This document shows positions 3,196 to 41,959 of a DNA stretch of 44,840 bases, one piece after another (positions within the stretch are counted from its first letter, which is position 1; every line of letters starts with the position of its first letter). A program made the translations under genes and the position numbers. The notes under the pieces are model-generated. The model was not told the DNA's origin, did no database searches, and worked only from the letters and a program-made list of their open reading frames with translations. Source of the stretch: a virus; the UHGV virus genome UHGV-0716684; one strand, given 5' to 3'.

Positions 3196-3223
3196 ATCTG
3201 CCCCTCTCGTTTGGTATGGGCTA

Positions 3224-3252
3224 ACTATAATAGCGAACTATTCACATGTCAA
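3224..3252 (-). promoter_or_regulatory. sigma70-like promoter TTGACA-N17-TATAGT with GAATAG-N4-CTATT operator-like palindrome
   Basis: Reverse complement reads TTGACAtgtgaatagttcgctatTATAGT; near-identical to the element at 128-156; divergent from the HTH gene at 3317. Confidence 0.5.
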
Positions 3253-3316
3253 TGGGCTTTTCTAAAATAATTAATATGGTACTATTCACATATCAACTGA
3301 CTAAGGAGTAACTGAC

Positions 3317-3549: not shown

Positions 3550-5772
3550 CTATTCCAAATCCTCCTCTGTCACCACCAGCATCTCATTTGGTTCGTATAG
3601 TGTCTTCGGCCTTAATCTATCACCTATTCTTTCGGGTATACGATATGTTCTCGGTACTACTTCGCCGTTAGCATCGCAACCAAGCATTAGTTCTCCATCT
3701 TTCAACATTTTATCAAGATGGGTGTTAGTCACAGAGAAGTCACCGGAACGAGCCACTATCTGCTGCTGAGTAAAACCGCGACCTGTGTCATCTGACTGTT
3801 GCAGGTCTTCCAGTGCCGAAAGTATTGACTCCTTCCTTACTTCATCCCTGCCGCGTTTAACTTCTTCCTTTACTTTTTGCTTACCTTCTTTCGTCAACCC
3901 TTCTTCCCGCTCTTTCTCCTCGTCAGTTTTGAACGGCTCGAAACCCCACGGCATCAACACAAGCGCCTTGTGTGGTTCAGGCAGGTCCAGGTTTACGATT
4001 GTGCCGTATTCCTCTGTGCTACCCAGGAACTCAACCGCTCGGTATTCTTTAGGCGGCGGCGCTTCACGGAACTGTACCGACTCCAGCACCATGCCAACCG
4101 TCTTCTGCTGAGGCCCGTGCTTGAATTTCGAGTGATATACGTTTATCTGACGGTCGGTTGCACGTTCGATTGTCAGTTCCACGTCAACACCCGCATACAG
4201 CGCCCCACTGCCGCGTGCTTTCTTTCCACCCTTCGGCGTATGGTGGACAACGCCTACTGCGGCTTTAGTTGCATCGCGTACTTCTTTCAGAATGGCGATA
4301 ACTTTACCCATGCCGATTGCTGTTGATGAACTGTTCTCGTCGAACTTATCAATCGTCAGTGCCAGGGTCTGGTTAAGGGTGTCGAACGCAACCATGCCAA
4401 TTGGCTCGTCGCCAGCAGTTTCGCGCATTAACTTAATCAGGCTTTTAAGTTTGCCGACTTCGCCCATATCGATGACGTGTACATAATCTTTACCTTCCCC
4501 GCCATATTTAGCCGCTAGTGCATCAATACGGGTGCGTGTAGCTGCGCCACCCTCACCATCAATATAGAAATGGTGGCAACGCTGGGTATCCGCCCCCGCA
4601 AACCTGTACCCGGCGGCGCTGAGGTACATCATCCCCAGCGTATAGAACGATTTGTACGTGCCAGATTCCCCGACGATATCCCAGATACAATCCGACGGCA
4701 TGTACCCCTCAACGACGAAATCAGCCTTTACCGGCTCCGGTAACTCGTCCTCCTCTGAGTCCTCGTCGTCTTCCAGGTCGTCGAGGCTGCAAGTTACTGG
4801 GTCCTCGTTCTCTGTGCGGTGTAGTTCTTCAATCTCTTCTTCCGGTAAATCAGGCAGAGCCGCACGAATGCTGTTAATGCTGATAGGTTGCTTATCTATG
4901 TTAAGCTCGTCGGGTAGGCCACACATACGCAGGGCCAAATGCTGCCTACGGTTAAGCTCGGTGCAAGCGCCGTTGTTTGTATGCTGGCAGACAAAGCGCA
5001 CTTCTTTACCGTCGAGCATTATGCTGGTGGAGCCCTTGCCTGTATGCAGATGTTCGTTAGGGCATGGCACTTCGTACCCGCGCCCGGAAGATAAAGCGTC
5101 AAGGCCAAGCTCGGCTTCGCAGAAGTGTGCTATATCCGCGTTAAGCCCATGCTCATCAGCGGCAAGTGTTTTAGCCTCACGCTTACGCAACCCCATCTCT
5201 TCGGCTTTCTTGATGTACCGCTCAGCACGGATAACACGCCCTTCTGTAACCGTTATCTTCGACTCTTTATGCGGCAGGTAGATAAGGCGGTTGCCGTCTT
5301 CTGTGCAGTGGTCGCGCAACGCTTCGTCTATTTCTAACTCTGCACAAATAGCACGTTGCACCATCCACGCGTCGTTAGAGTTAAACGGCGTGCGAGCTGG
5401 AACCAGAACGCGGAAAGCGTAATCTCCGTTTTTACATGCGTGCTGATGCGATGCCGTTGTGTGCAGAATATTGAAGAACGGCGCGTTCTTGAATTTGCGT
5501 GTCAGGTCGCGGTACTGAGTACGGTTGAGATGGTCGAAATCGAACTTAACCACACTGTCTTCCAGGATAGCGTTTTTACGGCGACCACCAACAGGCGCAA
5601 TAGCTTTCTGTTTAATCTTGGCAGCGTCGTACTCTTCCTTAGTCCATGACGGGTCCACGGATAAACGCTTCGATGTATCGCAGACATACTCGACAAACTG
5701 CTCCAGCGGCATTTCACGCGCTACAGGGTTTTTATCGAATGTGTTACGCAGCGTTGCAAAAACAATATTCAT
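3550..5772 (-). CDS. putative primase-helicase (primase-polymerase-like N-terminal domain, Zn-binding motif, C-terminal RecA/AAA_25-type ATPase)
   Basis: 740 aa; DFDH and SHQH motifs, CPNEHLH..C..C zinc motif, Walker A GESGTYKS, RecA-like C-terminal region. Confidence 0.7.
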   Translation of the reverse strand: MNIVFATLRNTFDKNPVAREMPLEQFVEYVCDTSKRLSVDPSWTKEEYDAAKIKQKAIAPVGGRRKNAILEDSVVKFDFDHLNRTQYRDLTRKFKNAPFFNILHTTASHQHACKNGDYAFRVLVPARTPFNSNDAWMVQRAICAELEIDEALRDHCTEDGNRLIYLPHKESKITVTEGRVIRAERYIKKAEEMGLRKREAKTLAADEHGLNADIAHFCEAELGLDALSSGRGYEVPCPNEHLHTGKGSTSIMLDGKEVRFVCQHTNNGACTELNRRQHLALRMCGLPDELNIDKQPISINSIRAALPDLPEEEIEELHRTENEDPVTCSLDDLEDDEDSEEDELPEPVKADFVVEGYMPSDCIWDIVGESGTYKSFYTLGMMYLSAAGYRFAGADTQRCHHFYIDGEGGAATRTRIDALAAKYGGEGKDYVHVIDMGEVGKLKSLIKLMRETAGDEPIGMVAFDTLNQTLALTIDKFDENSSSTAIGMGKVIAILKEVRDATKAAVGVVHHTPKGGKKARGSGALYAGVDVELTIERATDRQINVYHSKFKHGPQQKTVGMVLESVQFREAPPPKEYRAVEFLGSTEEYGTIVNLDLPEPHKALVLMPWGFEPFKTDEEKEREEGLTKEGKQKVKEEVKRGRDEVRKESILSALEDLQQSDDTGRGFTQQQIVARSGDFSVTNTHLDKMLKDGELMLGCDANGEVVPRTYRIPERIGDRLRPKTLYEPNEMLVVTEEDLE

Positions 5773-6917: not shown

Positions 6918-7136
6918 ATGAACAAAGCGACCGCAAGCGTAGTTTCCGCAATCAAAGAAGTTTACGGCATCGATATCTCAGAGCGCGTAATTATCGGGAA
7001 CAAGCGCAACTTCTTTACGTTCGACACCGACGGAATGGATGAAAATGATTTTGTTAACGTACAACGTTTCGCTAACGGTAAAGGACTTCGTAACGAGCCA
7101 GCGGGTTACAAGAAATTTGCTATCTACTTTAAATAA
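6918..7136 (+). CDS. hypothetical protein
   Basis: 72 aa ORF; AGGAA upstream. Confidence 0.5.
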   Translation: MNKATASVVSAIKEVYGIDISERVIIGNKRNFFTFDTDGMDENDFVNVQRFANGKGLRNEPAGYKKFAIYFK

Positions 7137-16770: not shown

Positions 16771-16799
16771 ATATTAAGGCCCCTATTGGGGCCTTAATC

Positions 16800-18212
16800 T
16801 CACTTATTCCATACCAATTTCTCTTGTCCGCTATCCCATATGCGGGATACACCTTCCGCAGCGTACCATTCCGACTGTGTAAGCCCCTCTGGCGCTTTGT
16901 TCCATTTTTGCCGTGATTCTGTTTTAGTCGCATTGTTTACGACGATGCGGAATCCACATCTCACAGAAGCCTTTTTAAACCCCGCTGATAGGTATGATTC
17001 TCCGGTAAATAAATCCCGGTCAGTGTAGGTAAAACCGTCGGTGATGCTATAACGGCGCACGGCATAGGCCCATAGCTTCGACAGCCCGCCTACCACCGAA
17101 CACGACGTAGCGTACCGCACAAGCTCCCATTCACCTTTTCTACACGTCAGCGTCATTACCGCAACAATCTTTTCTTCATAAACGAGGCTGATATACCTCG
17201 TCGAGTTACGGAATCCTTGAATGTGGTTCTCCTCCAGGAAACGCTCTGCACATATTTTGTTAATCTCTTTTACATGGCATTTGCGGGCGAAAACTCGCAA
17301 AGAAGAGACGCCGACGGAATGGCCGATTATTTTCTTTATTATTTCTTTTTTATGCAGCCATAGCTCATCCCTTATTGACAGGAGCCGGAACCCTCTTTCC
17401 TCAACGGCGACTCTTTTCTCCATGTGATACTTTCTCCCCTTCCCGGCAGCTTCACTGTGCCAGTACAGGCCGTTTATTTCTATCGCCAGATTATGTTGCG
17501 GTATTAAAATATCTATCTCTCTTGGGTGGATAAGACTTCTATCATTCCGATGATATTCCACCCCCATGCTATCGAGAAATTCACAGACTTCATCCTCCAC
17601 TTTACTACGCCCGAACGACGCGCACCGCGGGCACCCTCTACCCTGAAAAATGTTACCAAGCGTAGAGGCCCATTCATGGCCTTTTTGACACCTCAGTGTC
17701 GATGGCGCACGGCAGATATCCCCTGAATAAGACACCAGTTCAAAACCAGTGCCGCGTAACCTTTCCTCTATTTCTCCGATCTCGAGCCTTTTTCTGTTAG
17801 TGCTGCAATTCGGGCAATGACTTTTACCCCTTAAAATGTCGCTGCCGGTAGCGGACCAGACGAACCCGCATTTACATCTGAACGTTGATTTCCCACTTAC
17901 AGCACCTGCGTAATTAAGGCATTCAACCCCATTAGGCCACTCTGTTACTTTCGCCCGTTTTTCCGCAGCGTAGCATTGGGGGCAACCATGACCGTTTAGG
18001 ACGGTATTGGCCTTTGTCTCCCACACATGGCCACTACGGCAGCGGAATTTAGACTTAAGTTTAGAGTGGCCTGCATACTCAATTACTACTATACCCCGTG
18101 ACGCCAGTCTCAGGTTTACATCTTCTTCAGTTAAACGTCTGGACCCCATTAAAATACCCTCCGCTTCTTCTAGTATAAAGATTGTGTATATACATGTACC
18201 ACAGCAAGACAT
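16800..18212 (-). CDS. putative multi-domain homing-type endonuclease (zinc-ribbon repeats plus PD-(D/E)XK Vsr/DUF559-like nuclease motif)
   Basis: Repeated C..GH.W...G.GCP.C units; motif EIDILIPQHNLAIEINGLYWHSE; opposite strand inside the packaging/head module. Confidence 0.55.
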   Translation of the reverse strand: MSCCGTCIYTIFILEEAEGILMGSRRLTEEDVNLRLASRGIVVIEYAGHSKLKSKFRCRSGHVWETKANTVLNGHGCPQCYAAEKRAKVTEWPNGVECLNYAGAVSGKSTFRCKCGFVWSATGSDILRGKSHCPNCSTNRKRLEIGEIEERLRGTGFELVSYSGDICRAPSTLRCQKGHEWASTLGNIFQGRGCPRCASFGRSKVEDEVCEFLDSMGVEYHRNDRSLIHPREIDILIPQHNLAIEINGLYWHSEAAGKGRKYHMEKRVAVEERGFRLLSIRDELWLHKKEIIKKIIGHSVGVSSLRVFARKCHVKEINKICAERFLEENHIQGFRNSTRYISLVYEEKIVAVMTLTCRKGEWELVRYATSCSVVGGLSKLWAYAVRRYSITDGFTYTDRDLFTGESYLSAGFKKASVRCGFRIVVNNATKTESRQKWNKAPEGLTQSEWYAAEGVSRIWDSGQEKLVWNK

Positions 18213-19793: not shown

Positions 19794-19820
19794 AAGGCCC
19801 CGAAAGGGGCCTTAATTTTA
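19794..19820. terminator. conserved terminator hairpin aaggccccgaaaggggcctt
   Basis: Perfect 8 bp stem, GAAA loop, T-rich flank; same hairpin at 27155 and 39396. Confidence 0.6.
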
Positions 19821-20357
19821 ATAAGCTAACCAAGAACCTCTTTCTGTGAACATCAATTTATTTCCTTTTAAGAGATTCAGAACCGCAGGGATAACTTGTA
19901 TGTTTTCTGCGACGTGCAGCCCTGAGACAGTTTTAGCCCGCAACGGCAGCATGTGGTCGATATGCCATAAGAAACCTGTTTCACCCGCTCGCAGTTGACA
20001 TAGCTCCTGCGCTTCTTCGAATACTAATAGGTCAAATTCATCATTCCTGATGTTTATACTCCTGGCTCTTTTTGCCGTTTTATACTTCAACCTTTGGGCT
20101 TTCCTGGCGGTTTTGTTTTTCTTACGGTACTCCGCATCAATTTCGGCTAATCGGTCTTTATTTTCTTGCCTCCATTTTGCGTTTTTAGCCGCCCAAGAAA
20201 CAGCGTTTCGTTCTCGGTACGATTTTTGTATCTCTTTAGTGCACTCATAGCACCCGGTGCGAACATGCCTTTTCGCAACATGCCCGCGTTTACACGGTTT
20301 GCCAGTGAAGTAATAATCATCCCCCGCGGCTATGGCTTCTGAACGCTTAGTGAGCAT
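19818..20357 (-). CDS. HNH-type endonuclease
   Basis: 179 aa; CKRGH..C.EC zinc-binding N-terminus and WHIDHMLPL...N HNH-like core. Confidence 0.6.
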   Translation of the reverse strand: MLTKRSEAIAAGDDYYFTGKPCKRGHVAKRHVRTGCYECTKEIQKSYRERNAVSWAAKNAKWRQENKDRLAEIDAEYRKKNKTARKAQRLKYKTAKRARSINIRNDEFDLLVFEEAQELCQLRAGETGFLWHIDHMLPLRAKTVSGLHVAENIQVIPAVLNLLKGNKLMFTERGSWLAY

Positions 20358-20382
20358 AAAACCCCCTGTTTAAGTTAACCGA

Positions 20383-20411
20383 ATAGTACCCTATTATATT
20401 GGTGTGTGCAA
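20383..20411 (-). promoter_or_regulatory. promoter TTGCAC-N17-TACTAT with GAATAG-N4-CTATT palindrome
   Basis: Reverse complement TTGCACacaccaatataatagggTACTATtc; upstream of the HNH gene. Confidence 0.5.
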
Positions 20412-20686
20412 ACTATTTGTTTACATATTCCAGTTATTCCACTCAATTGTAAATGTTGGAATAAACTATTCGAATAGTTGACTTTTCACTAAAAATATGA
20501 TAAGCTCCACCTGAGCTTGTGAAGTATGAACAAGCGACCGCGGCGCGGGCAGGTAACGGAGCCGGATGTTAAGTCCGAGTGTAGTTACGCTGACGCGTTC
20601 GGAAGGGCCGTACTCTATTGCTTGTGTAAAAAGTAACTGGTTTACTGAGATTACGCCGTTTCTATGTTTAAATGATAAGGACTAGC

Positions 20687-20712
20687 GCCCCGCTTTAAGG
20701 CGGGGCTTTACT
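20687..20712 (+). terminator. terminator-like hairpin (gccccgc-tttaag-gcggggc, then tttacttat)
   Basis: GC stem followed by T-rich tract, located in the leader just upstream of the i-spanin RBS. Confidence 0.45.
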
Positions 20713-20730
20713 TATCGAGAAAGGAGAAAC

Positions 20731-27154: not shown

Positions 27155-27179
27155 AAGGCCCCGAAAGGGGCCTTTTCTT
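27155..27179. terminator. conserved bidirectional terminator hairpin aaggccccgaaaggggcctt
   Basis: T-rich tract on both strands; convergent gene ends. Confidence 0.65.
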
Positions 27180-27396
27180 ACTCACTTTTGAACGGCATTT
27201 CGTAGAAGTTAGTTAACTGGCCTCGGTCCCTTCGTTCTGTCATTTCTTTAGAGGCCTCTTCCTTACTACTAACGGCATAAATATCAACCCACTCGTCCCA
27301 TTCTTCGTCGTATACTCGGATTACATATATTGTTTTCATAATATTTTCACTCATCAATATTGCTTCGGTATTCCCGTAACTTCTCCAGACTTTCAA
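27178..27396 (-). CDS. hypothetical protein (accessory island)
   Basis: 72 aa ORF on opposite strand within tail module. Confidence 0.45.
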   Translation of the reverse strand: MKVWRSYGNTEAILMSENIMKTIYVIRVYDEEWDEWVDIYAVSSKEEASKEMTERRDRGQLTNFYEMPFKSE

Positions 27397-27577
27397 TTGC
27401 TTCTGCTAAGTCGGTTCCGGTGTCCTTGTGTCCGCGCAAGCCCATGCACAATAACTTCTTTAACGCATGCTGTAGCGCCGGGTCACGGATATCGAAAGCA
27501 CGGAGCACATCATAAACGTCTACTGTCATGGTGCTGCCGTGAGTGTTTGTCATTGTGCGGTTGTATTTTGAAGTCAT
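27347..27577 (-). CDS. hypothetical protein (accessory island)
   Basis: 76 aa ORF. Confidence 0.45.
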   Translation of the reverse strand: MTSKYNRTMTNTHGSTMTVDVYDVLRAFDIRDPALQHALKKLLCMGLRGHKDTGTDLAEAIESLEKLREYRSNIDE

Positions 27578-27586
27578 CTCTACACC

Positions 27587-28087
27587 CTATTTATAACCGT
27601 TGTTGAATGTTGTCAGTCCATGATTTATGTGAAACCTATTAGCCACAGACATGTAAATTCTTTCAGCGAAAGCGTCCTCTATTCTGTCAAATGTTTTACT
27701 AATCTGCTTACCGTTGACAACGGCATAAGCTCTCCACTTAGTTTTTCCTTTCCGCGCCACACCCGTAACTCCAGAGGTATTATCTTTGCGCCTTTTCACG
27801 TTAACCATGTTGTCCCTTCTAGATTTGCATGACAGGTTTTCAATTCTGTCGTCACAGGTATCATGGTTAGTATGGTCTATGACAAATCCTTTTGGAATCT
27901 TACCTGAGAACATCTCATACACCACCCTCGACCTTTTAAACTTACGGTTACCAAACATGACATACCAATAGCCGTTTTTACACAAACTCCCGGCCACATC
28001 ACCTATATTCACATCGTTACGGCGACATGATTTGACTTTCCAGTATAGGACGCCATTTTTGTAGCTAAAAACCTCACTCCAATCCAT
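27587..28087 (-). CDS. HNH homing endonuclease with AP2 DNA-binding domain
   Basis: HNH_3 motif VIDHTNHDTCDDRIENLSCKSRRDN; AP2-like SGVTGVARKGKTKWRAYAVVNGKQISKTFDRIEDA. Confidence 0.75.
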   Translation of the reverse strand: MDWSEVFSYKNGVLYWKVKSCRRNDVNIGDVAGSLCKNGYWYVMFGNRKFKRSRVVYEMFSGKIPKGFVIDHTNHDTCDDRIENLSCKSRRDNMVNVKRRKDNTSGVTGVARKGKTKWRAYAVVNGKQISKTFDRIEDAFAERIYMSVANRFHINHGLTTFNNGYK

Positions 28088-28102
28088 ACTTTCACCTATA
28101 TT

Positions 28103-29257
28103 TTAGTATGTCGATTTTGGGTTTATGTCTCGCAGCATTTCGACAGGTATACTTATGCGGGACACCTCCCCGTAACGTTTGTGGTATGTAATCACATTTG
28201 CGCTTCTACCTGAATAATAGCCGCCCTTACTAGAATACTCATCTTTAGCCGCTAATGTCTGGTGTTGCTCAACAATTAGCAGATTAGTCTCTTTAACCGC
28301 CCTGTGATGGAGGTGCCCCGTATGGACATATGTGAACTTACACCGCCCGTACATCTCCCGGTACTTACCGATTATAGCCTGCTCTACCTTAGCAAAGTTA
28401 GAACAATGCCCGTGATGTGCTGAAATCATACAATCCCCGAACTTGTACGCATAATACGGTGACACCTCCCGGTTAACCTCGACGCGAGGCTCATTTGTGT
28501 ATACCTCGTAGAACATCTCCCGGAGCCACAGAGAAGAACTAAGGTCGTGGTTACCTTCACAGATAAGAAGTTTAACCTTCTTGTGTTTTCGCAAGCACAG
28601 TGAGACAGCCAGCTTGATAACCTTAATGGCCGTGCGTATCATTTTAAACAGGCGACTATCCGCTGAAAGAATATGACCGCTCATAGGGGTCATTGCCTTC
28701 ATGCCGTCGTAGTGCATTTGGTCCCCTAAGAAGTTAATGATACATTCACCACTCTGTGGACTCATACAAACCGCACTGTTGAACCAGTCAACCGCGAGAG
28801 ATTCCGCGATTGTGGTGTCGTAATCATCCCCGCCTTCTTCTTGACACGCCAACATCCCTATGTGATGGTCTGTTATTGTGTAAAGATTTAATAAGTCGTC
28901 ATCTGTCCCATTTTTGGCCAAAGTGACTGGCTTATACTTGGGTAAATCTTTTTTCATCTCGTCCACAACGGCTTTCATTAACTCGACCTGACGTTCCGCA
29001 TCGGTGTCGGTCTTAACCCATTGCAGTTTAGTGTTGCCTAACTCATCAACCAGAGACGATGTACCCTTAATCTTGTAGCCGTCCGGCACAAGGTGGCTAA
29101 CGTCACGCCCGTGGCCTACGCCTTTCTTCGCTAGTTTCGCTTTACGGATACGAATAACGCGGTCTGAGATGCCGTATTTACGAGCAATGTCGATATTCTT
29201 CATCCCAGCGTTCAATTCTTCCTGTAACTGTTCGTCGGTTATTTTCTTCTGGGCCAT
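28103..29257 (-). CDS. HTH-fused calcineurin-like metallophosphoesterase
   Basis: N-terminal HTH (IDIARKYGISDRVI); phosphoesterase motifs TDHH, GDQMHYDG, GNHD, HTGHLHH. Confidence 0.65.
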   Translation of the reverse strand: MAQKKITDEQLQEELNAGMKNIDIARKYGISDRVIRIRKAKLAKKGVGHGRDVSHLVPDGYKIKGTSSLVDELGNTKLQWVKTDTDAERQVELMKAVVDEMKKDLPKYKPVTLAKNGTDDDLLNLYTITDHHIGMLACQEEGGDDYDTTIAESLAVDWFNSAVCMSPQSGECIINFLGDQMHYDGMKAMTPMSGHILSADSRLFKMIRTAIKVIKLAVSLCLRKHKKVKLLICEGNHDLSSSLWLREMFYEVYTNEPRVEVNREVSPYYAYKFGDCMISAHHGHCSNFAKVEQAIIGKYREMYGRCKFTYVHTGHLHHRAVKETNLLIVEQHQTLAAKDEYSSKGGYYSGRSANVITYHKRYGEVSRISIPVEMLRDINPKSTY

Positions 29258-29322
29258 GCCTATTTCCTCGTGTTTAGGATTTGTCCTATTTAACCACAGT
29301 GCATTCCTTTAAATAAAGGCAA

Positions 29323-29649
29323 CTATTTACTTTCTGCGCCTATTGACCATCCGGTTGTAACCATTTGCAAACGAGTGGCTAACAGTAGGCTGCTGAAAGT
29401 GGGGCTGTTAACATCTACAGACTCAACAACAAGGGATGTCATCAATTCAAGACCAAGGCCAGACCCGCCAGCGCGCACGGCAGCATTACATTCGCGAATA
29501 GCAGCGGTTTTAAACGCACTAACGGCAGACGGAGGGGCTGAATCAAGCACCCCGGAAGTTACTAAAGGGGTTTCACTATATACTTGCTCACACTGGGACC
29601 CTACCGCGCAAAAAGAAATAAGACCCATGGCTATGATTAATTTACGCAT
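29323..29649 (-). CDS. small secreted/periplasmic protein
   Basis: 108 aa; N-terminal signal peptide MRKLIIAMGLISFCAVG; first gene downstream of promoter at 29690-29718. Confidence 0.5.
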   Translation of the reverse strand: MRKLIIAMGLISFCAVGSQCEQVYSETPLVTSGVLDSAPPSAVSAFKTAAIRECNAAVRAGGSGLGLELMTSLVVESVDVNSPTFSSLLLATRLQMVTTGWSIGAESK

Positions 29650-29689
29650 TTTAATTCCTTATTTAAGTTAATAACGTTGGTGTAAGTGA

Positions 29690-29718
29690 ATAGTACCCTA
29701 TTATATTGGGGTGTGCAA
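29690..29718 (-). promoter_or_regulatory. promoter TTGCAC-N17-TACTAT with GAATAG-N4-CTATT palindrome
   Basis: Reverse complement TTGCACaccccaatataatagggTACTATtcac; essentially identical to 6855-6883. Confidence 0.5.
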
Positions 29719-29826
29719 GTAGTGTGTTAGAATAATTTTGCACCTAGTGTCGCGCACGAAAAGCGGTTGGTTACCGCCTGGTGCATTTCTCTTTAACCAA
29801 CAACCTCTTAACCAAAGGATTAAAGA

Positions 29827-30243
29827 ATGAAACTTTCTGATTTTTATTTCGCGTCCCGCCACGCTGCGGGAACTAAGATGCCTATCCTGCTACCGGACGG
29901 CAGTGACTCAGGGGAGTGGTTGCAGGTGATGGGGCCTGACTGCGACGACTCAATCGCCGCAGCTAAGGATTTTATCTCCGCTTACCGCGACATCCTTGAC
30001 CGCCTGAAACCGCTCGACGCGGAGTGCCGCGAGAAAGGGGACTGGGCGCGCTATAACACGGAATTAAACAGTGAATTGGCTAAACTTAACGATGCACTTG
30101 CTGCCGTTGTTGTTGTAGGGTGGTCCTTCGAGGAGAAGTTCACTAAGAAAGCGTTGGTCAAGCTGTTGAAGGAGTATAAAGGGTTGGGAGGGGCTGTCGC
30201 TCAACACCATGCTGAGAGCCGCAAAGCTTTATCTGTAAAGTAG
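29827..30243 (+). CDS. putative tail assembly chaperone
   Basis: 138 aa ORF directly upstream of tape measure gene; AAGGA RBS. Confidence 0.5.
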   Translation: MKLSDFYFASRHAAGTKMPILLPDGSDSGEWLQVMGPDCDDSIAAAKDFISAYRDILDRLKPLDAECREKGDWARYNTELNSELAKLNDALAAVVVVGWSFEEKFTKKALVKLLKEYKGLGGAVAQHHAESRKALSVK

Positions 30244-30602
30244 AAGCGCTTTACGAATATGCGAGGTATCGCTGGGTTATACGGCAAAGGAGACGTGAGT
30301 TCGACTCCATCGCCGACGGGCACAAGGCCGCTATGGCGGCTATGGGGTTACCTGTACCGAAGGAGCCTGAGGAAACCCCGCCGGAATGCCCGAGCGATAT
30401 GATGAAAATAATGGATAAATACTACGCATTGAAGTTTGTAAGCCGCAATAATGTGCTAATACCAAGGGAAATGCTCCAATATCACCACCTTACAGCGTAC
30501 GCAGAGTTGCATAAACAGCCGTTCTCGTTGCTTGAGGTAGACTTAATAATGGGCCTAGACGCACTGTTCGAAGGCCGTAATGAGGACGATTATAATGGCT
30601 GA
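30216..30602 (+). CDS. possible frameshift extension of tail assembly chaperone (GT-like), or separate small ORF from ATG 30333
   Basis: Frame is open from 30216, overlapping the last 28 nt of the chaperone ORF in the -1 frame, and ends just inside the tape measure gene. Confidence 0.35.
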   Translation, partial: EPQSFICKVEALYEYARYRWVIRQRRREFDSIADGHKAAMAAMGLPVPKEPEETPPECPSDMMKIMDKYYALKFVSRNNVLIPREMLQYHHLTAYAELHKQPFSLLEVDLIMGLDALFEGRNEDDYNG

Positions 30603-39557: not shown

Positions 39558-40978
39558 TTCTTACCTCGTCTCTTCATGTAATTAAGCAATTCTTCCTGCA
39601 CCGATTTCTTCTCGTCTGTACGCGCGGCAACAACCTCGTCCAGCGTGTCTTTAGCAACGATGTGATAGAGGAACACCGGCCGCTCGCGCCCTGCCTGTTT
39701 CTGGCGGACCGGGCCTATACGCTCGACAACCTGCAAATAGTGCTCAAGGTTCCAGCCTTGCGAGATGAATGCCAGATGATGCCCGCCGTCCTGTAAATTC
39801 AAACCATGCCCGGCTGACGCAGGATGCACGCATAAGATTTCGATTTCCCCTCGGTTCCATGCTTCCATCTGCTTATTGCCCTTAGCGCCTTTGGCAAACG
39901 CCTGGGCCTGCGGGAATCGCTTAAGGATGCGCTCCAGTTCGTGCTTAAACTGATAGGCCACCAATAACGGAGCGCCCTGTAACTCCTCAACAATCGACTC
40001 AAGCGCATCCAGTTTCGTGTCGTGAACTTTCTCCCAGTCTTTGGTTGCTTCTCCGTCTGGCCCCGATACATACACGGCACCGGATGCAATCTGTAGGCAC
40101 TTCGACGTCTTCGCCGCAGCGTTAGCCGCTTCCACTTCCCCGCTCTCCAGTTCTGCGAATAGCTTCTCCTCCATATCGATGTACGCCTGACGCGCCTTCT
40201 TCGGTAGGTCGATTTCAACCGGTACAATAATCGGCGCTTCACAACCAAACCACTCGGCCGCGTCAATCGTGAGACTAATGTCTTTCATCTTCTGATGAAT
40301 CTCATTATCTGCGCCAGGGCGGGCGTGGTATTCACGTGCCATCGCCGATTTGCCCTTCTGTACCGAGTTAAACCAGCGGTCTGTGAATGCTGTGTATGAA
40401 GAACCGAGGCGCTCTCCAGCGTCGATAAACCAGTTCTGACCCCACAAGTCCTTAAGGCCGTTCGGTGACGGTGTACCGGTAAGGTTAATGAAACGCTTAA
40501 CCTTACCGAACGCCACTTTGCTTAACGCCTTTGCTCTCTTACTACCGCCAGAACGACTACGGAATGATTTCAACTTCGTGCTTTCATCGGCGACGATAAC
40601 CGTAAAAGGCCAGTCGTCTTTGCCGTAGTAGTCGATAAGCCACTCGATAACTTCGTAGTTGGTGCACACCACGTTAGCGTCTGACTCCAGCGCCGCGATG
40701 CGGCGCTTCTCTGAACCGGTCGCATCGACGACACGCAGACAAGGGAAGTTCCATTTCTCTTGTTCTGCAGGCCATGTACCTGACGCAACACGCAACGGCG
40801 CGAGGATTAACACGCGGTCATCATCATTAAGTTGGCCGTTGCGGAACAGTCTGTTTAACGCCCACAGTACGCTGCCAGTCTTACCCGCACCCATGCTCGC
40901 CCATATGTTACAGCGATGGTGCCGCAGCATGAACGAGGTCATAAGCTTCTGGTACTCGCGCCTTTGAAACTTACTCAT
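39554..40978 (-). CDS. superfamily II DNA helicase (SNF2/RAD54-like)
   Basis: 474 aa; Walker A GAGKTG, DEST box (VADESTKLK), motif III LTGTP. Confidence 0.8.
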   Translation of the reverse strand: MSKFQRREYQKLMTSFMLRHHRCNIWASMGAGKTGSVLWALNRLFRNGQLNDDDRVLILAPLRVASGTWPAEQEKWNFPCLRVVDATGSEKRRIAALESDANVVCTNYEVIEWLIDYYGKDDWPFTVIVADESTKLKSFRSRSGGSKRAKALSKVAFGKVKRFINLTGTPSPNGLKDLWGQNWFIDAGERLGSSYTAFTDRWFNSVQKGKSAMAREYHARPGADNEIHQKMKDISLTIDAAEWFGCEAPIIVPVEIDLPKKARQAYIDMEEKLFAELESGEVEAANAAAKTSKCLQIASGAVYVSGPDGEATKDWEKVHDTKLDALESIVEELQGAPLLVAYQFKHELERILKRFPQAQAFAKGAKGNKQMEAWNRGEIEILCVHPASAGHGLNLQDGGHHLAFISQGWNLEHYLQVVERIGPVRQKQAGRERPVFLYHIVAKDTLDEVVAARTDEKKSVQEELLNYMKRRGKK

Positions 40979-41465
40979 TGGGTCGTATTCCTTTGTCTAA
41001 TGTTTCAAGTGCCGATACCCTGGCGGCTATTGCTTCTTCTCTTGTAGAGTAATAGCCTAAATGCTTCTTTATTCCGTCAATAGTCATATACGCGGCCCAT
41101 TTATTATGCGACTCTCGCCACCTAACGCCAGGAAAGCCGCTTTTATTACTCGACCTAATTTTCTGCCATCCAGCTTTTGCGACGTTACCTTGTTGTGTCA
41201 CTAACTGTAGATTTTCCAATCGGTTATCATCGTACACGCCATTTATGTGGTCAATTTGCATTCCTTCTGGAATCTTGCCGTTGTGCATCTCCCAGACTAT
41301 TCTATGCGCTTGGTATATTTTACCTTTGAACTTAATACGCCTATGACCCTTGTTTACCGAGCTTCCTGCTGTACTGCCTACCGATACTCTCGGCCCCGGT
41401 CTTACTCGCCAAATGAGGGTGCCGTTGTCGTAGGTGAATATCCTTCCCCATGCTATTTCACACAT
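40971..41465 (-). CDS. HNH homing endonuclease with AP2 DNA-binding domain (paralog of 27587-28087)
   Basis: HNH_3 motif QIDHINGVYDDNRLENLQLVTQQGN; AP2-like SGFPGVRWRESHNKWAAYMTIDGIKKHLGYY. Confidence 0.75.
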   Translation of the reverse strand: MCEIAWGRIFTYDNGTLIWRVRPGPRVSVGSTAGSSVNKGHRRIKFKGKIYQAHRIVWEMHNGKIPEGMQIDHINGVYDDNRLENLQLVTQQGNVAKAGWQKIRSSNKSGFPGVRWRESHNKWAAYMTIDGIKKHLGYYSTREEAIAARVSALETLDKGIRPNE

Positions 41466-41674: not shown

Positions 41675-41959
41675 CTAACTATAATAGTTAGCTATTAGGT
41701 CGTCAACCTGTTTAAACGAACCTACGACAAAAACATTCGCGCCACGTTTACGCATCCGCTCGTGCTCTCGTAGTTGGTGCGGGTCTGGCTTCGTATTTTC
41801 GTCTTTCTTCACCTCTACGAACCAGATGATGCCACCGGGGAGAATTACCAGCAGGTCAGGAGCACCCGAACGTCCTTCGTAGGAGAGCTTACGAACGAGG
41901 CCCCCCAGGGCCTCGAATCGGTCTTTTGCGTATTTCTGAATCTTGCCTTCCGGGGTCAT
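41675..41959 (-). CDS. VRR-NUC domain nuclease
   Basis: 94 aa; PDLLVILPGGIIWFVEVKK core typical of VRR-NUC / PD-(D/E)XK. Confidence 0.65.
   Translation of the reverse strand: MTPEGKIQKYAKDRFEALGGLVRKLSYEGRSGAPDLLVILPGGIIWFVEVKKDENTKPDPHQLREHERMRKRGANVFVVGSFKQVDDLIANYYS
41677..41705 (-). promoter_or_regulatory. sigma70-like promoter TTGACG-N17-TATAGT with AATAG-N4-CTATT palindrome
   Basis: Reverse complement TTGACGacctaatagctaactatTATAGT; overlaps a 17-bp perfect palindrome ctaactataatagttag. Confidence 0.45.

Follow-up and report, generated by a model that had tools for sequence, protein, structure and literature searches.

We have examined here a block of five genes that runs against the direction of the tail genes in the phage genome UHGV-0716684 (the whole stretch of 44,840 nucleotides, hereafter the window), which belongs to a virulent E. 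coli phage of the genus Kagunavirus. We conclude that the region is probably an autonomously transcribed, backward-facing cargo operon at an insertion hot spot among the tail genes. The original prediction had placed five minus-strand genes between the genes for the tail tube and the tail assembly chaperone (TAC), and the open reading frames of the window bear this out, with the cassette occupying positions 27178-29649 (Table 1). From this standpoint, the cassette is a real and neatly built feature, but of a kind that is ordinary in phages.

Table 1. Features of the cassette and its borders, in window coordinates
Feature	Position	Strand	Description
Bidirectional intrinsic terminator hairpin	27155-27174	both	Common to tube gene (+) and cassette (-)
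orf58	27178-27354	-	ATG start; small acidic protein; terminator-proximal slot
Jerseyvirus-like block	27344-29134		Centred on HNH gene; read as a co-conversion tract
orf76	27347-27577	-	Small phage domain, widespread, uncharacterised
HNH	27587-28087	-	Free-standing HNH_3 homing endonuclease; degenerate AP2-like C-terminal region
HTH-MPE	28103-29257	-	HTH-fused calcineurin-like metallophosphoesterase, phage T1 ST16 family
sec108	29323-29649	-	Exported small all-helical protein; promoter-proximal slot
Palindromic operator-like motif	29689-29702		AATAG-N4-CTATT; overlaps -10 region
Leftward cassette promoter	29690-29718	-	TTGCAC-N17-TACTAT
Putative rightward restart promoter	29725-29733	+	Extended -10 (TGTTAGAAT); for TAC and tape measure
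int-alpA-like structured RNA leader	29737-29802	+	Upstream of TAC gene; right edge of insertion site

The cassette is flanked on one side by the tail tube gene (PF18906, 5e-36) and on the other by the genes for TAC (PF08748 and PF23812) and the tape measure. Its GC content is 0.449, compared with 0.528 for the tube gene, 0.520 for the TAC-tape measure segment and 0.502 genome-wide. AGG/GGA-type ribosome sites are present in four of the five genes, and dN/dS values against relatives indicate purifying selection on all five, with the highest values in the cassette found for sec108 (0.26-0.40). In the arrangement that we propose, leftward transcription would start at a promoter of a phage-wide family, running from 29718 to 29690 and carrying AATAG-N4-CTATT. 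It would pass through sec108, HTH-MPE, HNH, orf76 and orf58 in that order, and stop at the hairpin where the tube transcript ends as well. Transcription would restart at an extended -10 promoter facing right, and continue into the int-alpA-like leader and on through TAC and tape measure.

The terminator was correctly foreseen as bidirectional, being called on both strands at a hairpin of the form AAGGCCCC-GAAA-GGGGCCTT, with folding energies of -16.3 and -17.7 kcal/mol (z -3.6 and -3.3) and, on the minus strand, a T-run 3' of the stem. The hairpin is one of four to five copies in the genome (identical at 19794 and 39396, variant at 16776 and 44511), all of which lie at convergent gene junctions, and in Jerseyviruses extra copies flank an antirepressor cassette. 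The loop reads either GAAA or TTTC among relatives. As regards recombination, these flips in loop orientation are suggestive only.

The promoter attributed to the island is likewise one of several copies of identical architecture. The window contains precisely four copies of TTGCAC-N17-TACTAT (6855 and 8464 on the plus strand, 20383-20411 and 29690-29718 on the minus strand). Each is embedded in an element of 36-47 nt, with 81-95% identity from copy to copy, and lies upstream of a correctly oriented gene. The element is kept upstream of the promoter-proximal gene in most relatives that have the cassette. These features of the sequence point to 29690-29718 as the inserted genes' own promoter. 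A generic sigma-70 scan made no call there because only 7 of the 12 consensus positions match. The palindrome AATAG-N4-CTATT is present in the window in eight exact copies, and in 13 with one mismatch allowed, against 1.2 expected. On reading the sequence, the exact copies all fall in promoter-like intergenic elements, among them the TTGACA-N17-TATAGT elements at 127-170, 3223-3266 and 41677-41720.

Arbiol et al. reportedly described in 2010 the PeSL mobile cassettes of T4-type phages, in which an early promoter and stem-loop repeats flank shuffled open reading frames. The window resembles this system in that near-identical promoters and hairpins border variable reverse cassettes at 16800-18212, 19818-20357 and 27178-29649. 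It differs in belonging to another phage family, and recombination at the cassette repeats is a suggestion drawn from the loop flips. The operator-promoter and hairpin-terminator repeats may be portable cassette ends.

Because the shared hairpin would cut off the tail genes downstream of it, the island would carry a rightward promoter, and it appears to supply such a restart for TAC and tape measure. The extended -10 was read directly from the sequence, has a weak -35 and was left uncalled by the generic scan. TAGAAT or TATTCT is kept in the same register in cassette-bearing relatives and is absent in relatives with an empty site, and divergent promoters are annotated at the matching place in Serratia phage Eta. 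An indirect indication of when the cassette may be expressed comes from RNA-seq of the Kagunavirus K1B4, in which an Imm-like gene beside TAC shares its temporal class with methylase and DNA polymerase genes and the one tail gene assigned to a class in the text peaked earlier, the classes being coarse and the one that holds the Imm-like gene being labelled late by the authors (PMC12645636).

The RNA leader in front of TAC matches Rfam RF02996 over its full length; it scores 35.0 bits where gathering requires 35.8, and E is 9e-5 when 3.5 kb is searched and 0.0012 over the whole window. No Rfam model passed a search in gathering mode. Among relatives, compensatory changes are seen in 11 of the 13 pairs, and pairing is 90.8%, whereas shuffles give 71.6% and slid controls 33-51%; none of 500 shuffles reached the observed values. 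The leader has the junction nucleotides of RF02996 (CCUAG...CGAAAAGCGG...CCGCCUGG) and its three-helix layout. It departs from that family in lying 0.8 bits under the gathering threshold and in its position as a 5' leader before a tail chaperone gene, the int-alpA motif being named for the integrase and alpA genes near its members. The leader is also found in relatives with an empty site.

The comparison of related genomes that had been proposed as a check supports the prediction and reveals a site of variable occupancy. The tube-TAC gap is empty (94-185 bp) in nine loci, all from distant relatives; it measures 344 to ~1600 bp in about 25 loci, where it holds one or a few small genes (a single one is usually exported), and 1.8-3.4 kb in 46 loci with the metallophosphoesterase (MPE) gene. 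Every Kagunavirus and Jerseyvirus locus examined has the full cassette, the MPE being at the site in 33 of 33 Kagunavirus-level loci (IMG/VR and GenBank) as well as in the Jerseyvirus loci. Since the MPE is in every one of these, the word accessory fits the surrounding slots better than it fits the MPE, which at genus level behaves as a resident gene and not as recent cargo. Nor is the cassette a single insertion: it is a mosaic built in layers, in which at least four slots exchange independently. The explanation that we favor, and judge likely as a whole, is that the cassette is a cargo operon at a long-standing hot spot for insertion and recombination, the tube-TAC junction of Guernseyvirinae-type phages.

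The description of the island as moron-like cargo holds for its promoter, terminator, low GC and variable site, and needs qualifying for the genus-resident MPE and the mosaic make-up. Like the morons of Hendrix and Juhala, the cassette has its own promoter and terminator, lies between late genes that are adjacent in relatives and has a GC content below that of its flanks. Unlike them, it contains DNA-metabolism and selfish genes and draws its promoter from the phage's own regulated family. The host phage is virulent, and so the classical argument for morons, that they can be expressed from a repressed prophage, does not apply. A single-gene candidate moron at this site is already known from Serratia phage Eta. 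Its gene 60 also lies at the tube-TAC junction and was described in print as a 'potential moron' that has a promoter and a terminator to itself (PMC3918226); the annotation places bidirectional terminators and divergent promoters on its borders. The present cassette differs from it in having five genes, all antisense to the late operon.

The MPE has intact catalytic motifs, with five metal-ligand motifs invariant in the family alignment, and it has an HTH and a fold like that of Mre11/SbcD, features that identify it as an HTH-fused enzyme of the MPE fold, as originally labeled. The Pfam Metallophos models gave no match to it at E up to 0.1, and one homologue cluster carries a precomputed PF12850 match. 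The family is that of the T1 ST16 'DNA repair exonuclease'; literature searches found no characterised member. In place of the capping domain of Mre11, the phage protein has an N-terminal HTH and a beta-hairpin linker, and there is no SbcC/Rad50 partner among the neighboring genes. It is an intact two-metal phosphoesterase whose Mre11/SbcD-like core is tethered to a DNA-binding HTH, and we infer that it cuts DNA or processes DNA ends in a Mn-dependent manner, either while the phage replicates or with the DNA of the host as its target. The usual location of the family is an early region or one for DNA metabolism. The gene is early or lysis-adjacent, and on the strand of its upstream neighbours, in T1 and in Webervirus, Jedunavirus, Dhillonvirus, Vibrio and Rhodobacter phages.

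These observations bear on a second reading, possible but distinctly less probable than the first, in which the five genes form a resident early operon whose HTH-MPE is a required enzyme of DNA replication, recombination or host-DNA degradation, with selfish or neutral genes coming and going around it. The constancy of the MPE at the site in Kagunavirus and Jerseyvirus loci is what this reading expects, as are the size of the family (2012 phage records, 1940 full length), the strong purifying selection on the gene (dN/dS 0.02-0.22 against relatives), the operator that the cassette promoter has in common with the replication-arm promoters, and the retention in Webervirus and Kagunavirus of a trio of MPE, HAD-PNKP phosphatase and P-loop kinase. 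It is harder to reconcile with relatives that have 63-78% identical tube proteins and lack the MPE at this site, in some of which it was found nowhere in a 15-kb stretch, with the location of the gene elsewhere in loci L048 and L079, and with the moron-like low GC, terminator and promoter. The MPE catalytic domain has moreover been swapped wholesale between genera, which argues for an interchangeable function and not for one co-adapted to the genome.

The swap is evident in the MPE of the window itself, a chimera in which residues 1 to ~98 follow the Kagunavirus allele and residues 99-384 the Jerseyvirus allele, and the exchanged tract is centred on the neighboring HNH gene. The earlier assignment of that gene as HNH-AP2 stands in its first half, with matches to PF13392 (6e-16, 58.2 bits, cut-off 24.8), to phrog_99 (1e-49) and to the PADLOC 'HEase' (homing endonuclease) model. 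Its second half is weakly supported, through a T1 orthologue and a paralogue in the window: the cassette protein gives no AP2 match even at E up to 10, and a weak AP2 match appears at E 0.0024 in the T1 orthologue, which is 63% identical, and at 3e-5 in the paralogue, which is 36% identical, both of which align with it over the AP2 region. The T1 orthologue is encoded directly 3' of a 40%-identical MPE.

The block of Table 1 is 92% identical in nucleotide sequence to loci L002 and L043 of Salmonella Jerseyviruses, although identity between their tube gene and that of the window is no more than 68-69%. Identity is highest in HNH (96-98%), falls to 94-96% in the catalytic part of the MPE and then to 89, 85 and 80% before the sequences become unrelated, and dS against L002 rises from 0.12 in HNH to 0.50 in the MPE and 1.14 in orf76. 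The identity gradient, the lowest dS at HNH and the chimeric MPE together are the sequence signature expected of co-conversion. The HNH gene is intact in the window and in L031, L002, L042 and L043, and is a remnant in L056 (an in-frame deletion), L067 and XY1 (truncated, a fused scar). It is absent from all 376-aa MPE alleles, where the MPE and orf76 genes overlap. Full-length copies have dN/dS of 0.02-0.06.

The cassette protein is like the phage HNH_3/AP2 homing endonucleases (e.g. T1 ST15 and, functionally, T4 Seg and Mob) in its HNH_3 motif and free-standing gene. As is typical of free-standing homing endonucleases, it is sporadic at one fixed intergenic position, decays to remnants and is surrounded by a co-conversion gradient of flanking markers. 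It differs from the HNH_3/AP2 class in an AP2 domain too degenerate for Pfam detection. We regard HNH as a selfish element and not as a host-interaction gene. It is lodged between the MPE gene and orf76, and its spread by homing would have brought the Jerseyvirus-type MPE catalytic domain into Kagunavirus.

The two remaining small genes encode conserved proteins. orf76 matches phrog_2452 (2e-36), covering only the C-terminal part of longer profiles. Its domain occurs in 3585 clusters at 50% identity, alone or fused N- or C-terminally, and the longer proteins have no Pfam match; dN/dS is 0.01-0.06. orf58, which shares 8 nt with the end of orf76, has no Pfam, PHROG or NCBIfam match, is found (as cluster C12) in only some relatives and has a dN/dS of 0.07-0.25. 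Its ATG start agrees with a 58-aa CDS annotated in XY1. The TTG start listed at 27396 was rejected as an over-extension.

The original prediction had also raised anti-defence functions for the island. This reading would have the MPE destroy the cyclic-nucleotide signals of host immunity or defence-encoding host DNA, and sec108 and the small open reading frames inhibit other defences. The locus is variable and fast-evolving, and gp48, the early MPE of mycobacteriophage A10ZJ24, is reported to cause damage to host DNA and silencing of defence genes (PMC12287305). gp48 lacks an HTH, its motif I starting from residue 10. The N-terminal HTH of the cassette enzyme points to a DNA substrate. The only PADLOC match among the cassette proteins is that of HNH to the homing endonuclease model, and sec108, orf76 and orf58 have no link to any defence system. 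We consider an anti-defence island improbable.

We give equally little credence to the idea that the cassette is what is left of an end-healing or nucleotide-salvage module, in which an ancestral MPE acted with a PNKP-type phosphatase and a P-loop kinase and two of the three were lost. In 14 Kagunavirus loci the MPE is directly followed by a HAD_PNKP phosphatase (3e-20) or a P-loop kinase, or by the two together, and the same placement is seen in T1-like Klebsiella phage Roth09 and in a Jedunavirus (pseT). RNA end healing by an MPE-fold phosphatase is reported for bacterial Pnkp (PMC3675462, PMC2190708). Such a module would repair nuclease-cut tRNA or DNA ends, or recycle nucleotides. The window, on the other hand, has neither the phosphatase nor the kinase, and in those annotated regions that were examined the module has no ligase gene beside it. 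P-loop matches of the kinase in Pfam are weak and sub-threshold and assign it to no kinase class, and the counterpart in one Klebsiella phage record is annotated 'phosphomevalonate kinase'.

Of the host-interaction and exclusion functions proposed for the island, exclusion has positional support, and this for the promoter-proximal gene of the cargo operon. Across relatives, the proximal slot almost always encodes a small envelope-targeted protein, sec108 in the window: of the 69 loci with a minus-strand open reading frame in the gap, 57 have a strongly hydrophobic segment in the protein encoded next to the promoter. These genes fall into three clusters without detected mutual similarity, namely small membrane proteins, the sec108 family and, in two loci, lipobox lipoproteins. 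Some of the membrane proteins belong to PF14373 Imm_superinfect (1e-13) and others are weakly YebO-like, and the alternative slot gene of sister phages matches PF14373 at 51.3 bits (cut-off 27.9).

sec108, correctly predicted to be secreted, belongs to phrog_14165 (2e-33) and has a signal peptide of the signal-peptidase I type and, in the alignment, invariant C20 and C54. Its AF2 model has a pLDDT of 84 with residues 1-16 disordered. No Pfam model matches it, PF14373 Imm included, and its fold has no specific PDB match and no similarity to a solved exclusion protein (T4 Spackle-like). Among the homologues encoded at this site are Cornellvirus gp51 and Eta gene 60 (hhalign probability 98% for the latter), and all 64 family members with a recorded size sit on contigs of at most ~45 kb. 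Three sec108 alleles are ~57% identical among Kagunaviruses that are otherwise >90% identical.

The slot proteins are small and envelope-targeted, as are the exclusion proteins T4 Imm (PF14373), T4 Spackle, T5 Llp, T1/phi80 Cor and TP-J34 Ltp, and sec108, like T4 Spackle, is small, exported and helical; in neither sequence nor fold is it similar to any of these proteins. It would be a periplasmic, disulfide-bearing protein acting at the cell envelope. Its slot position and export signal suggest superinfection exclusion as the most likely role, by analogy with the T4 Imm-like protein in the same slot of sister phages, for which that role is annotated. The tube-TAC junction may be a slot dedicated to exclusion, in which the three exported or membrane clusters, without detected mutual similarity, replace one another, and sec108 may found a new periplasmic exclusion class with no known fold relative.

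Taken together, an exclusion slot, portable cassette ends and a restart promoter feeding an int-alpA-class leader make up a joint reading that we offer tentatively and think rather unlikely to hold in full. If it is true, portable ends would let reverse-oriented cargo, including homing endonucleases, enter late operons without killing downstream expression, and the restart promoter with its leader would be the first defined cis-regulatory context for the orphan int-alpA RNA motif.

The window (44.8 kb) is in essence a complete Kagunavirus genome (Guernseyvirinae, E. coli siphophage), and its nearest GenBank relative is vB_EcoS_XY1, with 95.6% identity over 81% of the window's first 25 kb. The five minus-strand ORFs of the cassette are flanked by plus-strand genes, the tail tube gene (PF18906) on one side and two tail-assembly-chaperone (TAC) ORFs and the tape measure (TMP) gene on the other. 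All five ORFs are under purifying selection relative to their counterparts in related phages, four have recognisable ribosome sites, and the GC content of the cassette is 0.449 compared with 0.52-0.53 in the flanks. The hairpin that ends the cassette has a stability far above that of shuffled sequence. The leftward promoter lies under the threshold of a generic sigma-70 scan, which called neither it nor the rightward promoter of the cassette, and both predicted promoters rest instead on paralogous and orthologous conservation. The leftward promoter is an exact instance of an architecture found four times in the genome, always upstream of a correctly oriented gene and embedded in an element of 36-47 nt with 81-95% identity among the copies. 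The anatomy of the original prediction, five minus-strand ORFs with a promoter at this position and a terminator, is thus borne out by the ORF, terminator and promoter-repeat checks. Beyond the cassette, a single PHROG profile (phrog_15027, 259 positions) spans both TAC ORFs, which are ~90 nt apart, and a joined 'pre-tape measure frameshift protein' is annotated in a related Serratia phage record.

Features of the cassette, of the rest of the window and of related loci
Feature	Coordinates	Strand	Remarks
Cassette hairpin	27155-27174	both	called as terminator on each strand
Cassette, five ORFs	27178-29649	-	ORF calls
orf58	27178-27354	-	
orf76	27347-27577	-	
HNH	27587-28087	-	
HTH-MPE	28103-29257	-	
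sec108	29323-29649	-	
Leftward promoter	29690-29718	-	TTGCAC-N17-TACTAT
Extended -10	29725-29733		TGTTAGAAT
int-alpA-like RNA	29737-29802	+	Rfam RF02996, full-model match, 35.0 bits vs gathering score 35.8
TAC ORFs	29827-30243, 30333-30602	+	
Tract resembling Jerseyvirus loci	27344-29134		92% nucleotide identity
AATAG-N4-CTATT	133, 3229, 6871, 8480, 20382, 29689, 41683 and near-matches		promoter-like intergenic elements
Candidate palindrome-binding regulator	6918-7136		
HNH/homing-endonuclease-like gene	16800-18212	-	470 aa; terminator hairpin at 16776
Endonuclease VII-like gene	19818-20357	-	terminator hairpin at 19794
Promoter element of endonuclease VII-like gene	20376-20411		predicted
Non-coding stretch	20412-20730		~320 bp
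GC-rich hairpin	near 20686-20710		inside non-coding stretch
Second HNH_3 endonuclease	40971-41465	-	adjoins helicase gene
HNH remnant, L056	9200-9290		MDWSEVFSYKNGYK; 14 codons, in frame
HNH-MPE fusion, XY1 (L001)	4002-4565		
MPE/HAD_PNKP/P-loop kinase trio, L089 (Klebsiella phage Roth09)	2492-4726		also L001, L004 and 12 further IMG/VR loci

Matches to the 4.8 kb surrounding the cassette come from 402 phage records, nearly all belonging to Salmonella Jerseyvirus or Escherichia Kagunavirus. Using the tube protein as an anchor we fetched 80 IMG/VR loci and several GenBank loci, and measured what lies between tube and TAC genes. The gap is 94-185 bp in nine relatives (63-69% tube identity), with no room for a gene; in ~25 loci it spans 0.3-1.6 kb and holds one or a few small reversed genes; and in 46 loci, including all 33 at Kagunavirus level and those of Jerseyviruses, it spans 1.8-3.4 kb and includes the metallophosphoesterase (MPE). 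Two loci have an MPE homologue ~6.7 kb away rather than in the gap. A single reversed gene occupies the site in both Cornellvirus FSL SP-031 and Serratia phage Eta. In the Eta genome paper this site is annotated with divergent promoters and bidirectional terminators, gene 60 is described as a potential moron, and a 19-bp repeat present at four sites is mentioned as a possible regulatory element (PMC3918226). Eta gene 60 belongs to the sec108 family (hhalign probability 98%). This range, from empty sites through the single gene of Eta to the MPE cassette, indicates that the site is a long-standing hot spot. Comparison with relatives favours the accessory, moron-like locus that had been proposed, a reading already published for its minimal one-gene version (PMC3918226), and the cassette represents a familiar class of phage feature in a well-built form. 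Two qualifications apply: the locus as a whole is accessory but its central enzyme, the MPE, is resident at genus level; and the locus is layered, with separate slots, and not a single insertion. To the right of the island, TAC and TMP fall into several highly diverged alleles (42-57% or 97% identity to the window across loci L003-L037) among phages with tube proteins 88-98% identical, so that the island sits where the tail module has a major mosaic boundary.

The slots emerge from clustering of the gap ORFs across loci, and their order is a gene proximal to the leftward promoter, then MPE, then an optional HNH gene, then a distal slot. The proximal slot is occupied by one of three types: a small membrane-protein cluster, the sec108 family or, in two loci, a lipobox lipoprotein. 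Within the membrane-protein cluster, some proteins score above the Pfam cut-off for T4 Imm_superinfect (1e-13), and for others there is a weak YebO match; a strongly hydrophobic segment is present in the proximal gene at 57 of 69 occupied loci. The distal slot contains either orf76 or a HAD_PNKP phosphatase (3e-20) with a P-loop kinase, and may be followed by a Rha/ANT antirepressor or orf58. MPE, phosphatase and kinase are kept as a unit in one T1-like Klebsiella phage and in Kagunavirus genomes, which suggests a shared function in nucleic-acid end-processing or nucleotide salvage; the window has neither the phosphatase nor the kinase. PHROG matches of orf76 to the C-terminal part of longer profiles only had prompted the idea that it is a truncated kinase or 'ATPase' fragment. 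We rejected this because the kinase of relatives does not cluster with orf76 in an all-against-all comparison and the sequences look unrelated by eye, because orf76 has a constant length of 76 aa across at least 15 loci and a dN/dS of 0.01-0.06, and because the domain stands alone in thousands of clusters. The fusion partners of this domain gave no functional clue from Pfam or PHROG. NCBIfam and PADLOC searches with all five cassette proteins returned nothing useful except 'homing endonuclease', leaving the suggested anti-defence function unsupported.

The product of the window's proximal gene, sec108, begins with a positively charged segment followed by a hydrophobic core, and an AXA-like cleavage site immediately precedes C20, which together with C54 makes up its two invariant cysteines. 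The AF2 model has a confident all-helical bundle for the mature part (pLDDT 84) and a disordered signal peptide. A lipoprotein assignment was rejected, there being no lipobox and AXA-type cleavage sites lying ahead of the first conserved cysteine. A single-sequence search found only three near-identical proteins, and a profile made from locus-derived homologues was needed to recover the family (64 proteins, none with an informative name); all members with a recorded contig size are on contigs of at most ~45 kb, which fits phage-sized genomes. Among Kagunaviruses otherwise >90% identical there are three sec108 alleles, mutually only ~57% identical, and the dN/dS of sec108 (0.26-0.40) is the highest in the cassette. 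Because the protein has an export signal and its slot is occupied in other phages by a genuine Imm-family protein, an argument from position and not from homology, we infer that sec108 may act at the envelope, most likely in superinfection exclusion. Exclusion, one of the functions originally envisaged for the island, is thus plausible for the proximal gene only and not for the other cassette genes. The further idea of a cognate exclusion target, with proximal-gene allele linked to TAC/TMP allele, was dropped, as the window and locus L004 share TAC (97%) and TMP (91%) and yet have sec108 proteins only 57% identical. RNA-seq of K1B4, a related Kagunavirus, put a TAC-adjacent Imm-like gene in the temporal class of the methylase and DNA polymerase genes, and the only tail gene assigned a class in the text peaked earlier (PMC12645636); these classes are coarse, and are compatible with separate regulation of the cassette but no more.

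The MPE is homologous over its full length to T1 ST16 ('DNA repair exonuclease', 40% identity), and homologues occur in 2012 phage records spanning T1-like, Dhillonvirus, Jedunavirus, Vibrio and Rhodobacter phages. In the MPE-bearing representatives examined, the gene is in early or lysis-adjacent regions and is co-oriented with the genes upstream of it. The AF2 model (pLDDT 70) has three N-terminal helices, in agreement with weak LuxR/FixJ-type HTH matches, followed by a beta-hairpin and the MPE core, and all five MPE motifs are invariant in the alignment; the label of an HTH-fused metallophosphoesterase stands. Sequence searches of the PDB gave no match, and no T1-type HTH-MPE that has been characterised came up in the literature searches. 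A functional analogue of different architecture is an MPE from a mycobacteriophage, which damages host DNA. We regard the MPE with moderate confidence as a putative DNA-directed nuclease or end-processing enzyme.

The window's MPE is chimeric: over residues 1 to ~98 it does not differ from the common Kagunavirus allele, and over residues 99-384 it matches that of Jerseyviruses. The Jerseyvirus-like tract extends through much of the cassette, even though the tube genes of those loci are only 68-69% identical to that of the window. Identity peaks at 96-98% in the HNH gene, is 94-96% across the MPE catalytic domain, and beyond this drops to 89, 85 and 80% before being lost; in parallel, dS against the Salmonella Jerseyvirus locus L002 is 0.12 for HNH, 0.50 for MPE and 1.14 for orf76. 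In HNH-free alleles MPE and orf76 overlap. Locus L056 retains an HNH remnant, and in XY1 a fusion joins the first 61 HNH codons to the 3' part of a second MPE, a fragment of Kagunavirus type; both are scars of HNH turnover. In T1, too, the MPE gene is directly followed by an HNH gene, with 63% identity to that of the window. Because of this combination of chimerism, identity gradient, dS order, overlap, remnants and T1 arrangement, the traces appear as expected of a homing endonuclease at the 3' end of the MPE gene that would co-convert its flanks. On this reading the gene is simply selfish rather than host-interaction cargo, and of the HNH-AP2 label it had been given, the HNH part holds and the AP2 part has indirect support only. 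The second HNH_3 endonuclease of the window is 36% identical to the cassette HNH and has a weak AP2 match, and the genome has at least four homing-endonuclease-like genes in total.

The cassette's hairpin, the loop of which is GAAA or TTTC across relatives, also ends two other reversed genes in the window, the HNH/homing-endonuclease-like and endonuclease VII-like genes, both of which break into the head module. The latter is predicted to be driven by a promoter element of the cassette type, with a non-coding stretch between this element and the next plus-strand gene. In Jerseyviruses, two copies of the hairpin bracket the antirepressor gene. All four TTGCAC-N17-TACTAT elements contain the palindrome AATAG-N4-CTATT, of which the window has eight exact copies, or 13 with one mismatch allowed against ~1.2 expected. 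Three elements that resemble leftward promoters close to consensus (TTGACA-N17-TATAGT) contain it as well; they lie where the genome is transcribed leftward, in the part with the helicase and second HNH genes. The palindrome is probably the operator of a phage regulator; a candidate gene for this regulator has no obvious HTH by eye.

The right edge of the island abuts an RNA positioned immediately upstream of the TAC gene and just outside the interval originally assigned to the island. Twenty distinct versions from relatives share the same three-helix junction, with compensatory changes in 11 of 13 pairs. Across these versions 90.8% of cells are paired, compared with 71.6% in shuffles and 33-51% with partners slid, and the G-U pairs are compatible with the plus strand only. 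The RNA precedes the TAC gene in cassette-bearing and empty-site relatives alike, and its retention at empty sites places the insertion point between the tube stop codon and the RNA. An extended -10 lies just ahead of the RNA in genomes with the cassette and is absent from empty-site genomes. The island would thus bring a rightward restart promoter, offsetting the terminator that it itself introduces, and the annotated divergent promoters of Eta match this putative layout.

None of these results changes the general picture of phage organisation. They do give a clean anatomy for a variable locus that several hundred sequenced phages of Salmonella and E. coli carry, many of these being candidates for phage therapy, and at which gene names are now chaotic ('replication factor C', 'oxidoreductase', 'acid phosphatase', 'recombination endonuclease'). 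They assign an uncharacterised RNA motif of Rfam to a defined place ahead of the tail-assembly genes, document gene flow, linked to a homing endonuclease, between phage genera of Salmonella and E. coli, and nominate the sec108 family and its slot as candidates for superinfection exclusion.
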